From the NCBI RefSeq assembly GCF_053078305.1, contig NZ_CP166879.1: DNA of 64,000 bases, one strand, 5' to 3'. Below are positions 53,101-59,100 of the stretch, in pieces. Numbering within the stretch: the first letter of the stretch is position 1; each line of letters begins with the position of its first letter. Position numbers: made by a program.

Positions 53101-56100
53101 TATACCAGCCGCATCTCCCGCTGGCGACGGAATGGCGCCCTGTGCCTCCGGGGCCTGACCGGGGGCTGCTTTTGCATGACAACACGAAACAGGCGGGATT
53201 TACCGACGGGATGCAGGTTAAAATCTGTGTGATGCCCGACTGCATCATCATCACCACCCAGAACAGCCGCGAGCTGTGGGGCTGCGCCGAGGGGCTGAGC
53301 GTGACACATATCAACAGGCCGAAGATGCTCCAGTGATTTAACACCTTCCCCGGCGCTGGGCCGGCTGATGATTGAGGCGGAGTTTAAGTTCTGAGGTACT
53401 TTTAATGACGATCCCGGCGCAAGGCCGGGATTTATTCTATCAATTTTTAATTGATTCACATTTTATCTAACATTAAAAAACATTTACCAAAGGGATAACC
53501 TAGCTGCATACAGCCATTTAGGACATCCCATATATGCTGTGCAACCCCTCCCAATATGACCCCTAGGATTATACCGAGCACGACATTAACTTTTATTTTA
53601 TGCCGTGGTATTTCCTTACCTAACCGCCACGAATCAAAATAAGTAAAACTATAGCCGATTAAATAAATAACCGGGAAGAACACCACGAACCCTAACATGA
53701 TCAGACCAACACTAAAACCAAGCATCTCGACCTCCATAACATGGAAAAATAATAACTAACTAATACATCGACTCAGCGCCAACCTGAGACCAGCGCCGAT
53801 CTCTTCAGGTGAACTATCTGCTGGCAAGATAACATTATCGCTACCGCCACGTCCGGTACCTCCCCATTCTTCCAGCTTCTCATGGCGCGATGGTGAGATT
53901 GTAATTACGCCGTTAGCACAAGAGATATCACAGCTTTTCATACCTTTAAATAAGGCTTTTTTAGTTTTATAACCATACTGCATCATGAGTTTCTTTACCC
54001 AATCAGCATAGCGTTCTGCTGTACACTTAAAGTCATAAAGCTCCATATCGAATGTTGCTTCAGGGTGTATCCATACATCTGTATGGGGAGCGGGTAATAC
54101 AAAGCGACTATGAGCCAACGCATTCTTCACCATAATACCTAACTCATTATCACCAATATCAGGTGTATTCAGTTACTGAACTCCTTGAGGATCACATCGA
54201 TTACTACTGTAACCAGAATAAGTTTCAACACAGATAAAATCTGCATTCGCTTTTACAGAGGCCCATGCCGTTTTTACTATGTTATTCATATTATTTCACC
54301 TGAGTTACCTTAACACCCTGACTTTTGCCATACTCAACAGCCCTGTTTATTTCCGTCCATTGAGTTTTCGTCGTATTGGCAGGGACAGCTAATCTCACAT
54401 CTTTACTGGAAATCATTGATGAGTCAATATTAACGCCAGAAAGTGATGCTTTCTCAAATTTCGCTGCCGCATCAATATTTCCTTTAAGCGAATAATAAAC
54501 CTGATTGGGATTAGCCAGTTTTGCCATCGTCTGGGTATCCATTGATTTAGCACTTACAGCAACTCTTGATGCTTCATCATAATAATCAAACGTTTTAAAG
54601 TTTTGCGGTAATCGCGAATTTGCCGGAAGTGTGGTTCCCACATAATCCTCCACGGCATCCCCTGCTTCATATTACCCTGACCCCACTTCAACCCGCTCTA
54701 TGAAGCGCTGACTGTGGCTGTTGCTGTATTGCGACGCATAAAGGAAATAGCTGCAACGCCGATATCCTTTGCCAATAGACCTAATGAAGCCACTGCCACT
54801 TGATTTTCAGGGGCTGACACAAACAGCGCATATTTCATCCATTCCAGACTATTCATGTCTATTTTAGCCAAATCCTGACCATTCCATTGCTGAACGTAAG
54901 CTTTTGCCTCATCACTGGTCATGACATCAGCGCCAATACTTCCTAGCCAACCAGGACGCTCTGTCATATCAATACCGCCTAAGGCAACCTCTTTATCCCA
55001 GCCCATAGCTGTTAAAGGATGATTTTCCAGACGTTCATCAACGATGGCACTATGCTCGTCACTGACTTTTTTCCATTTATCAATAACATTCTGACAGTCC
55101 CCCCCAATTTTCGGCAGTTTGTCAGCTCTTTATCAAATTCGACGGCCTGAGAACTACTCAGATAATTATTCTCAACAACATTTCAGAACCCCTTAACTTT
55201 CATGATATGCAACAAACCAATACCCAAACCTAAGATCCCACCCCCATACACACTCATTTTTAACAGTCTAGAAAACTGAAAAACTTCAAATGATATTGGG
55301 GCATTCAAATAAAAATACATAAATATCTCCAGAAGAAGATAAAAAATCGAACCGACTATAAACAAACCAAATATGCATACAGTCATTAATAAGACAACAA
55401 TAAGGAAGCTCTTCATTTCCCAGCCTCCATTGCATCTTTCTTTTTCTGGATAATGGAGCTTCCAAACTCAGATGATAAACTACCACCCGCATTACCCACA
55501 GCACCAGGGATCTTACTCGGTACCATTTCTTTAGATAGACCTAACTGCCCTTTAACTTCAGTATATTTTAGTAGAGTCGGATCGAATTTAGGATTCCAGC
55601 CATCGGTTATCCATTTAGCGATTGTATTTGCAGCAGGCTTGACCACATAATTGCCAACCCCATATCCAAACCCGGCCCCCGCTCCATTTGTAATCGCCCC
55701 AGTAAAAGGATCATCTCCGTTTATAGCGTTGGTTAATGCTCCACCTGCCGCATTCCAGGCTATTGTCCCTTTCCAGCCCTGCCCCATGGTTATCACATTT
55801 ATCCAGCCTGCTGCCACTGAGTTGACCCGGTTTATTTCACCACTATCTGCATACTGCATCCCGGCATTTGTCCCGGCACCAAGTAACCACATAGCTTGGG
55901 CACTCCCCGGTAACAGGGCTACGCTGCCTGTTGCTAATGCGGCTGCATAAGCTTTATTTTCAGCCTGTCCCCGCCTTACAGGCTTCACCGGAAGGATTAT
56001 CACTACAGGAGAGAACATCAGCGCCATGCTCTCTGGCTTTTTCCGTCTGGAGCCATTCACTGCCACCCAGCAGATTATTCTCAACAGCATTCTTCCCGCT

Positions 56101-59100
56101 TTGTGCTCCCACTGCTGCTGATGCGGTGCTGTTTCCGGTAAGACCTCCGGCCAGCCCTGCTGACACGGTTGCCAGCGTACTTATCGTCTGCTTCTGCTCT
56201 TCACTGAGGTCAGACAGCTTCACGCCAGGATACAGCATTCCGGCAATTGCTCTGGCTGCCAGTTCTCCTGTTGCGGCGCCTGCTGCACCGGCAGCAACAT
56301 TATTACCCTGCATTGCCGCTACTGCACCGCCCAGAATGGCGTGAGCAATGGCGTTTACTGCCGGATCTTTTTCTGTTGATTTCAGCAGGTGCGCCAGTTC
56401 CGGAGCCGAAGCTCCGGCCAGAGCACCCGCTAAATTACCCCCCGCCAGCCCCTGAAGCGCGGCCCGGATACCCCGCTGAATTTCACTGCCGGTACCATAC
56501 TTCGCCATTTCATCCCTGTAAGCCTGCGTGTCACGCAGTTTTGCCAGATATGCCTGCCGCTGCTCTTCCGTCGCATCCTCCGGAACAGGCCCATATTTAT
56601 CCTGCGCAGCCTTCAACGCATTCAGTTCCCCCTGCGTCCGCGCAATATCAGCCACCTGACTGCCTATGTCACTGATAAGCCCCACTGTCTACAGACGCTG
56701 CTGCTCTTTTTCCTTGTCAAAGATGGAAAAGCAAAAAAACCAGCCAACTGAACTAGCTGGTAGTTAAAGTCTATTTGATTTTGCTTAAAATATTATTGAC
56801 TATCGGTATTACAGAACTAACCAATTGCTCTTCCTCAACTGTATACAAAAGCAATTCGATCTCATTCTCCGCATTAAATAACATTGTATGGAGCCACTTT
56901 TCCTCAACAGCAACAATTTGGCTTTCCGCAGCATAAATTTCTGATTGAATACTTTGTACCGTTATTTTCCCTTCAAGAAAGTTTTTACAAGAGTGTTGTA
57001 ACCTCTCGATCACCTCAGGATAAATCCAACTCATTGCCCACTCCTGCGAAGAATAGTAACAATAATATTACTGTTATTTTCAGTGACTACACCTACGTCA
57101 CCACTCCAATAAGTCGTTCTAGTTACGCCATTAACGACACTATTTTGAGGAGTTCCTTCTTTGATAACACTTTCAACCATATTCGGCGTTATATTTCTCC
57201 CTGGGCCAACTGTGCCGGCTGGAGAACCTAAACCAGATGGCTGCATTCTATCAACAGCATGTTGTGAATACAAACGATGACCTATTTGTGCATATTGTCG
57301 CCCATCTACTGTAACCTTTCGATAATTTTGCCAAGAGTCCCAAGGTAACTTTTCAGAACTATTAGGTACGTTTTCTGATGAGGTTTTCTCATTACGTTGC
57401 TCTATTGATTCATTATTCCTGGCGTTCTCCTCATCCTGCGGCTCCCATCCCCCCGGTGTTCCAGCATCTGCGCCACCAAGCTCAGCTTTCTCCTTGTCCG
57501 TAGCGCTCGCTACGTCTTTGCCCAGATTCGGCTGTTTGTTTTCGTCTGTATTGTCGCCATTCAGCACATGCCCCGGCCCCCGGGCACCATCGCGACTCGG
57601 ATCACGTACAGCACACTGTTCCCGTGAGCCTTCACAACCACCACCGGTATCCCAGCTATTATCATTCCCGGTATCCTTACTGGCATTACCTGTAGCACCA
57701 GCTATTGCTGCTGCCGTATTAGCTGCTGTTTCAGTGGCTATCACGTTCAGCATATTGTTTTCAGCCGAGTTCCTGCCTGCCTGTGCACCCGTACCGGCAG
57801 ACGTCGTACTGTTGCCGGCAAGCCCGCCCGCAATCCCTGAGGCAATGGTGGCCAGCATGCTGATTTGCTGACGTTCCTGTTCACTCAGGCTATCGGTACG
57901 ACCACCGTAGTAGTTATCAATGATATACCGGGCTGCAAGTTCACCACTGAATGCCCCTGCAGCACCGGAAGCCGCATTGTTTCCACCCAGTTGTGCAGCA
58001 AGCGCTCCCCAGACTGCGTGAGCCATCAGGTTTGCTTCCCGGTTATCGCCGGTGGCCTGTTTTATAAGCTGTGCCACTGCCGGATTCAGACCGCCAGCCA
58101 GTACCTGCCCCGGATTCCCTGCATTCAGTCCGCCCAGCACACCCGTGATGGCCTGTACCACCATCTGCGGCGTACTGCCCGTACCGTAGCCTTTCATGAC
58201 CTCTCTGTATTCCGGGGTCTCCCGCAACTGTGCATCGCTCATGCCAGGATGCTCTTTCCTGGCTGCTTTCATCGCTTCAGTTTCGCCATACGTCATGACG
58301 ATGTTACTCATCTGACCGCTAATCTGGCTGATAACCTGCGCTTCCTGAAGACGCTTCTGCTCTTTCTCCCTGTCAAATATCGGTGCAATGCTGCCGTTGG
58401 CATTTTCCGGGTCCCGGCTGAGCCCGGCAATACCCTGCATCTGACTCTCCTTATTACGGATAATGAGATTTCCGCCGCTGATGGCGGATGACGTGGTACC
58501 TTCAGCATGTCCACTGCTGCCGGACATACCGGTAAGTGCGTTCGCCGCACCGGCTATTGCATTTGAAGCCACCATCTGGCTGGCTGACATCCCTGAGCCA
58601 CCCGATAAACTGATTCCGGTATGGCTGGCTTTATAGTCTGCCTGGTTATGGATATCCGACCAGCCCAGCGTGCCGGTACTGAGGCTGTTTTTGTCATCCG
58701 TTGCCGTGGACGCAATTACCGCACCATTGAGCTGAGTGTGATTCCCCACAGTGACATCAAACCCGTCTTTTCCGGCGTAGATACCACTCTGTTCCCGGAC
58801 AGAATCGTAATTGCTTTTGATTTTGTCCTGACTGATGCTGGCATAGCCGCTGCCGGACATTGAGCCAAACGTGAAGCTGCCACCTGCAGCCACGCTGTTT
58901 TGTCTGCTGTCGTAACGGTCACTGTCCTGAAGACTCGAAATGGTCAGGTTATTACCCACATCCGCTGTGACTTTCTCACCACTGACCTGAGCCCCCGACA
59001 GGGTGGTATCACGTCCGCTTGTGAGGGAGACATTTTTACCCGCATCCAGCGTGGTTTCGGTCCAGGTCGTGCTGCTGCCTTTCTCACTGCCTTTGGAGCC

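Follow-up and report, generated by a model that had tools for sequence, protein, structure and literature searches.

A probable class-I cdi locus tail in Escherichia coli with two degraded orphan cdiA-CT/cdiI cassettes

The 64,000 nucleotides of contig NZ_CP166879.1 (NCBI RefSeq assembly GCF_053078305.1) analysed here, called the window below, contain a cdiA-cdiI toxin/immunity gene pair followed by two further modules, each made of a CdiA C-terminal toxin region (CT) and an immunity gene. We consider it very probable that this is the tail of an Escherichia coli class-I contact-dependent growth inhibition (CDI) locus, in which the resident cdiA-cdiI pair is succeeded by two orphan cdiA-CT/cdiI cassettes delimited by the VENN motif. 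All cdi features lie on the minus strand, and the orphans span 53756-56724, 3′ of cdiA-cdiI. The arrangement and both toxin/immunity families are already known and experimentally characterised, and the instance in the window is a partly decayed member. Its features, in the order in which the minus strand is read and with their basis in brackets, are as follows:

57031-64000, minus strand: resident cdiA, 3′ part, which exits the window (open reading frame (ORF) listing)
57754-57765, minus strand: AENN variant of the VENN motif, coded GCTGAAAACAAT, at the start of the resident CT module
56771-57034, minus strand: resident cdiI, 87 aa, overlapping the cdiA stop (ORF listing)
56739-56761, minus strand: terminator-like hairpin and T-run between resident cdiI and orphan 1 (consensus scan; function predicted)
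56086-56724, minus strand: orphan 1 pretoxin fragment, ~200-210 codons (Pfam PT-VENN, E=1.7e-19)
56074-56085, minus strand: VENN-coding site of orphan 1
55416-56073, minus strand: orphan 1 toxin (CdiA-CT), an ionophore of the CT-M15 type by its match, split at 55974/55975 (DNA and protein match to M15)
55974-55975, minus strand: orphan 1 frameshift, one G too many, AAGGCGGGG as against AAGCGGGG in intact copies
55183-55416, minus strand: cdiI-o1, intact 77-aa membrane immunity gene with GGAGG 7 nt upstream (ORF listing, hydropathy)
55165-55176, minus strand: VENN-coding site of orphan 2, two codons past the cdiI-o1 stop
54698-55164, minus strand: orphan 2 entry (helical) domain, broken, ending at a TAG (alignment to MSI001)
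54291-54697, minus strand: orphan 2 PD-(D/E)XK DNase domain, frame broken (alignment to MSI001)
53756-54289, minus strand: cdiI-o2 pseudogene, 177 codons, starting at 54289 directly past the toxin stop (alignment to MSI001)

The VENN-coding pattern GTNGARAAYAAY was found at exactly two sites in the 64-kb window, both on the minus strand (shuffled sequences give an expectation of 0.24), in agreement with the two additional VENN modules 3′ of cdiA-cdiI that an earlier, sequence-only reading of this stretch had described. Arrays of this kind were reported by Poole et al. (2011, PLoS Genet; PMC3150448), who found orphan cdiA-CT/cdiI modules 3′ of cdiBAI, 11 of them in strain EC869; the orphans have no start codons, expression of an orphan cdiI is possible, module homology extends from one VENN to the next VENN, and some orphans are disrupted (e.g., o9 of EC869). 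The window is like those arrays in that its orphans lie 3′ of cdiA-cdiI on the same strand, a small cdiI comes after each CT, the CTs open at VENN or a little way ahead of it and lack a start codon (their translation status is predicted), the cassette boundaries fall at VENN, and insertion sequence (IS) remnants flank the locus. It differs in that there are two cassettes only, in that point lesions and not IS insertion have inactivated the two toxins and one of the immunity genes, and in that the pretoxin region of the resident cdiA is divergent and its motif is AENN. An intact cognate cdiI follows the CT in cassette 1 but not in cassette 2, where a TAA stands at codon 39. None of the 5,426 complete E. 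coli genomes searched by megablast contained the complete 3.6-kb arrangement, each cassette being found singly. The module that comes after cdiI-o1 is a different CT in M15 and IGC_RcoliRes_1.1 and an o11-like CT here, and the junction is at NVVENN each time.

By alignment, orphan 1 is a damaged version of CT-M15, a characterised CDI ionophore of group 6. Its homology to cdiA begins at ~56724, just past the terminator-like hairpin, with no ATG and with an in-frame TAG present, and its pretoxin fragment shares ~90% identity with the pretoxin part of cdiA genes elsewhere in E. coli. The TAG replaces the CAG that full-length cdiA genes and the equivalent O157:H7 orphan fragment have at 56689-56691, and a 9-bp in-frame deletion lies near 56465. 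At the DNA level the CT and cdiI share 97.6% identity with the 3′ ends of full-length cdiA genes of mouse strains M15, M19, M11, M9 and M6, and the intact orphan of strain IGC_RcoliRes_1.1 is about equally similar. The sole gap relative to M15 cdiA is an additional G (CCTGTAAGGCGGGG in the window, CCTGTAAGCGGGG in M15), and this extra G is also the sole gap within the CT relative to IGC_RcoliRes_1.1. A 903-nt CT/cdiI query from the window was covered to at least 80% by 22 complete genomes; none of them shared the window length, and most matches span 902 nt. The orphan 1 frame ends 37 codons past VENN (TGA at 55960-55962), and the Gly-rich toxin body runs on in another frame to 55416; deleting the additional G gives a continuous CT of 223 residues, 215 of which match CT-M15, with a GxxxGxxxG motif at residues 134-144.

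Halvorsen et al. (2024, PLoS Genet; PMC11630599) divided E. coli CDI ionophores into six groups defined by their entry domains; the ionophores share a glycine zipper, and their CdiI proteins are two-helix proteins of 72-100 residues. CT-M15 represents group 6: it depolarises its targets, for which DtpA or DtpB is required, and cdiI-M15 blocks its action; the M15 and M19 CdiA proteins (the latter WP_073521398.1) stand next to each other in the group 6 list with identical search statistics. The entry and ionophore domains and the zipper of the repaired orphan 1 place it in group 6, and the module as a whole shares with CT-M15/CdiI-M15 the high DNA identity given above, a glycine-zipper motif and a small hydrophobic immunity protein. 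Orphan 1 differs from CT-M15 in eight amino-acid changes (including P to R in the EINPV segment) and in that it is not a continuous frame fused to a CdiA delivery protein, since its CT is detached from cdiA and carries the +1 frameshift 34 codons past VENN. As judged from these alignments, orphan 1 is a pseudogene of the group 6 family and no working member of it. The toxin family is widespread in Enterobacterales, and the orphan 1 toxin itself gave no relative in the PDB and no NCBIfam or Pfam match, PT-VENN being the only Pfam match of orphan 1. Much of what the sequence-only reading had said of orphan 1 is thus borne out: ~200 aa of pretoxin homology, a stop 37 codons past VENN, a Gly-rich body in another frame followed by a 77-aa ORF, and a pore-former-like toxin with a small membrane immunity protein. 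The alignment of the orphan CTs to characterised families that it had proposed was run, and it assigned orphan 1 to CT-M15 and orphan 2 to the EC869-o11/YPIII family.

Orphan 1 was also considered as a copy of EC869 o10, whose CdiA-CTo10 is a depolarising toxin dependent on SecY, PpiD and YfgM (Jones et al. 2021, PMC7858069). The two are alike in having a Gly-rich ionophore domain and a small membrane immunity protein, and they are distant homologues (26% identity at E=6e-10 by BLASTP; hhalign probability 97.3%), but o10 has another entry domain, that of group 2 (SecY). The assignment was rejected, as an O157:H7 locus shows o10 to be a different, distantly related toxin; that locus fits the published EC869 layout, including an o9 interrupted by the SSuT element. 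The eighth orphan along it is a closer relative of orphan 1, but its last ~35 residues and its CdiI differ. As a separate observation, the +1 insertion gives rise to a 225-aa ORF (55413-56090, minus strand) that consists of 39 unrelated residues and then toxin from residue ~38. It was rejected as a new, internally expressed toxin, its ATG lying out of frame inside the NAVENN codons with no well-spaced Shine-Dalgarno sequence, and it is probably incidental.

The immunity gene of cassette 1 is intact. The start of cdiI-o1 overlaps the orphan 1 toxin stop (ATGA), its product matches the CdiI proteins of M15 and M19 at 75 of 77 residues, and exactly this protein is present on 34 contigs in public collections. 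It is the only gene of the array left as a plausible working gene.

Orphan 2 opens two codons past the cdiI-o1 stop, directly at VENN as the sequence-only reading had noted (…KVKGF, stop, NV VENNYLSSSQ…), so that its pretoxin remnant is NVVENN only. By homology it belongs to the EC869-o11/YPIII DNase family (PDB 4G6U, 4ZQU), whose toxin/immunity pairs are Zn-dependent PD-(D/E)XK DNases neutralised by beta-augmentation. The copy of this cassette in MSI001 is intact and 97.3% identical; its conceptual protein is collinear without gaps with EC869 CdiA-CTo11 (4G6U_A, E=5.8e-145), and its nuclease domain matches the YPIII toxin 4ZQU_A at E=6e-61. Because of this collinearity with solved toxins we took MSI001 as the functional state and mapped the lesions of orphan 2 by alignment to it. 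The first is a 1-bp deletion at 55106/55107, adjoining a run of seven G. A GAG to TAG nonsense change follows at 54698-54700, and then another single-base deletion (54651/54652), which falls precisely on the W176/E177 codons. The last, near 54310, is an in-frame loss of 6 bp that takes two residues out of the conserved C-terminal VTVTQVK. The toxin is therefore broken, as the sequence-only reading had it, but not by the simple split between two frames that it described, there being four changes relative to MSI001.

The pieces remain recognisable. A 102-aa ORF of orphan 2 matches 4G6U_A residues 56-154 (E=5.2e-43), and a 120-aa ORF matches 4ZQU_A (E=1.9e-56) and 4G6U_A residues 172-288 (E=3.4e-53); the Pfam domains CdiA_helical and CDI_toxin_EC869_like are recorded in a related locus (L005), CdiA_helical there in a gene identical to orphan 2. 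Among characterised systems, the entry domain of orphan 2 is collinear with that of the EC869 CdiA-CTo11/CdiI-o11 pair (TA271; 4G6U), and the closest pair to its nuclease domain and immunity protein is the CdiA-CT/CdiI of Yersinia pseudotuberculosis YPIII (4ZQU). The four catalytic residues, E177, D198, S209 and K211 (numbered as in PMC9086364), are all encoded in orphan 2, but not in a single reading frame: the frame is broken twice and stopped once, two VTVTQVK residues are gone, and the cdiI is cut at codon 39. Programmed frameshifting or phase variation at the run of seven G was considered and rejected, since the downstream TAG and the second frameshift persist.

The immunity gene of cassette 2, cdiI-o2, is by the same kind of alignment a pseudogene as well. 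The intact CdiI of MSI001 is 177 aa long, matches residues 1-177 of the YPIII CdiI 4ZQU_B (E=7.7e-88), and is covered by the Pfam CdiI family PF07262 over residues 9-175. In the window TTA has become TAA at 54173-54175, which cuts the gene at codon 39 of 177, and cdiI-o2 does not encode a full-length CdiI domain (~165-177 aa). The 125-aa ORF at 53756-54133, which the sequence-only reading had taken for an intact immunity gene of orphan 2, is the tail of cdiI-o2 and matches residues 53-175 of the solved 4ZQU_B. In an AlphaFold2 (AF2) model of CdiI, whose confidence is modest (mean pLDDT 61), strands 8-14 and 19-23, which make up the first beta-hairpin, come before the stop, and neutralisation is described as the clasping of a toxin hairpin by two hairpins of CdiI (reviewed in PMC9086364); the 125-aa remnant has thus likely lost its function. 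The earlier summary of the array as toxins disabled with immunity retained therefore holds for both toxins and for immunity in cassette 1, but not for immunity in cassette 2, where it has been lost.

The counterpart of the resident cdiA in a near-identical locus (L003) encodes 3164 aa with TPS, Fil_haemagg_2 and PT-VENN domains, and the exact resident CdiI protein is found on ~1000 contigs in public collections. The resident CT gave no Pfam match; an orphan copy of it is labelled DUF4258 by the Prokaryotic Genome Annotation Pipeline (PGAP). The resident CT/cdiI pair occurs as an orphan module in O157:H7 and in IGC_RcoliRes_1.1, where it is followed by the same terminator-like hairpin and a pretoxin fragment; in O157:H7 this hairpin stands at the equivalent junction, that of o5 and o6, and in the window it may restrict transcription running on into the orphans. 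We observed in addition that the resident cdiA is a mosaic (57754-58608, minus strand): it is ~90% identical to O157:H7 cdiA up to ~58608, the next ~700 nt form a divergent pretoxin segment of 67-70% identity, and from ~57908 the CT/cdiI module is 96-97% identical to the orphan modules of O157:H7 and IGC_RcoliRes_1.1. This mosaic suggests the trace of an earlier loading or displacement event.

We propose that the orphan cassettes were displaced or acquired by recombination and that both then decayed in this lineage. We infer what the toxins once did from near-identical or homologous characterised proteins: cassette 1 would have encoded a CT-M15-type ionophore that uses DtpA/DtpB to get into the inner membrane of the target and dissipates its potential, with a small membrane CdiI neutralising it, and cassette 2 an EC869-o11/YPIII-type toxin with a YciB-dependent entry domain and a Zn-dependent PD-(D/E)XK DNase, neutralised through beta-augmentation by a 177-aa CdiI. 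The orphan CT fragments have neither a start codon nor a secretion context and would not be made; if they are not translated, lesions in them should be neutral, and the build-up of lesions, three in the orphan 1 fragment and four in the orphan 2 toxin, is the outcome expected of neutral decay. Cassette 2 has lost its immunity gene too, to a nonsense mutation, and cdiI-o1 alone stays intact.

This account presupposes that the lesions are real, and the sequence-only reading had raised the possibility that the frameshifts are sequencing errors. On that view, extended to the stops, the cassettes are in truth intact and their apparent lesions arose in sequencing or assembly, and the 1-bp deletion at 55106/55107 does adjoin the run of seven G, an error-prone context. 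The 4.1-kb region is, however, 100% identical in GCA_000937855.1 and has one or two mismatches and no gaps in GCA_001902675.1 and GCA_001902685.1, that is, there is no gap difference across 4.1 kb in three independent assemblies from different projects; a Logan contig of 1,208 nt from run ERR14963877, which covers the orphan 1 part only, is identical there. The same genomes differ from the window elsewhere in the locus, and since two of them show ~40 single-nucleotide polymorphisms (SNPs) in 12.7 kb of the wider locus they are distinct strains. The exact truncated products occur on further contigs (the 241-aa pretoxin ORF on 6, the 102-aa ORF on 22 and the 125-aa remnant on 21), and the lesions include three base substitutions (TAG at 56689-56691, TAG at 54698-54700 and TAA at 54173-54175). 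The orphan 1 insertion, which the sequence-only reading had sought in a homopolymer near 55960-56000, sits in a GG dinucleotide at 55974/55975 with no long homopolymer. The gap-free sharing of lesions among assemblies, the truncated products and the substitutions together exclude sequencing error for practical purposes, and we give that explanation almost no credence; by these comparisons the lesions are inherited within a small E. coli lineage.

Other explanations accept the lesions and give the array a present use. It could be a working toxin reservoir, in which recombination at VENN/pretoxin sequences reloads the resident cdiA with a new toxin, as has been proposed for orphan arrays generally (PMC3150448). 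The cassette boundaries are exactly at VENN, and the finding of the resident CT/cdiI as an orphan in O157:H7 and IGC_RcoliRes_1.1 means that this locus family has undergone loading or displacement. Against a reservoir in this strain, both orphan toxins carry multiple inactivating lesions, and the resident cdiA has AENN (GCTGAAAACAAT) and a divergent pretoxin region, which matches the orphan region exactly over no more than 12 nt and otherwise shows only patches of 68-71% identity. RecA-dependent exchange in E. coli needs 20-30 bp of identity, so a 12-nt match is well below what it requires. The reservoir interpretation offered in the sequence-only reading is thus weak here, and we regard it as very unlikely. 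The locus might instead have been pared down to an immunity-only defence, selection keeping the cdiI genes as a shield against the toxins of neighbours while the toxin fragments rot, and this we hold to be a real but less than even possibility: cdiI-o1 is intact, has a good Shine-Dalgarno sequence and matches the experimentally protective CdiI-M15 at 75 of 77 residues (PMC11630599), and EC93 expresses an orphan CdiI (PMC3150448). Such a defence does not sit well with cdiI-o2, which is cut at codon 39 with loss of the N-terminal 52 residues of a single-domain protein, or with the terminator-like hairpin upstream of the array, and a pattern seen in one of two cassettes is within reach of chance alone.

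Decay of both cassettes remains the reading we prefer, and several points weigh against it. The ratios of non-synonymous to synonymous change (pN/pS) are 0.18-0.31 for cassette 1 and ~0.5 for cassette 2, from 5-17 substitutions each, so that neutral decay and purifying selection are inseparable by this measure; for the same reason, counts that are too small, the use of pN/pS as proof of relaxed selection was dropped. An ATG is present in the 125-aa remnant of cdiI-o2, which some records list as an immunity protein, so that the remnant may conceivably have residual function, and the CdiI model used to judge it is of modest confidence only. Finally, cdiI-o1 may be unexpressed, as there is a terminator-like hairpin past the resident cdiI and no strong promoter was predicted.

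Directly beyond the array lies one further conserved gene:

53456-53725, minus strand: conserved 89-aa membrane ORF with a GGAGG Shine-Dalgarno sequence upstream (homologues, hydropathy)

This ORF falls inside the range covered by the sequence-only reading (53456-57034) and is not mentioned there. It encodes two hydrophobic segments and has two invariant cysteines, C72 and C82, in its tail. Its homologues are 60-97% identical and all 89 aa long; those found were confined to the cdi loci of E. coli, Serratia marcescens and Pantoea piersonii, and always lie directly 3′ of a cdiI, the type of which varies (PF07262 or Imm8). It belongs to no Pfam family, and CDI loci could have in it a component so far unrecognised, either an accessory or an immunity protein that stands alone. 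A joint reading, in which cdiI-o1 is selectively kept as an immunity-only defence against CT-M15-type ionophores and the 89-aa ORF is an unrecognised CDI component, is in our estimate unlikely. Another small membrane gene that belongs to no cassette was seen within an orphan array of the EC869 type, in O157:H7 strain 2-6-2, where a DUF2569 membrane-protein gene (13645-14166 of locus L009) lies between the o10 immunity gene and CdiA-o11.

The borders of the locus carry other features. A short SymE-like ORF (53142-53336, plus strand), with 64 aa where the model has 113 residues, is convergent with the cdi array at its end, and a hairpin at 53410-53432 lies between the two; MSI001 has a full symE at this position, and Rfam found no SymR or other RNA at the SymE-like ORF. 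An IS4-family transposase split into two ORFs (51040-51420 and 50093-51019, minus strand) borders the locus, an IS21 IstB fragment (45340-45969, minus strand) is mobile-element debris at the locus border, and a 264-aa ORF also lies there (52281-53075, minus strand), the corresponding gene of L003 being labelled DUF4376. An Rfam scan of 45-64 kb gave no match, nor did an NCBIfam scan of seven locus proteins.

These findings matter little beyond annotation, where their consequence is that the 125-aa "CdiI" database entries are products of a truncated pseudogene. If cdiI-o1 is expressed, it would give protection against neighbours that deploy CT-M15-type ionophores, and the immunity predicted for the strain extends at most to its own toxin and ionophores of that type. 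The locus is a clear case from nature showing that the maintenance of orphan CDI cassettes has exceptions, as the two toxins and one of the immunity genes have been lost, and it has a modest bearing on the question of why orphan toxins are retained, whether as a reservoir or as an immunity collection.

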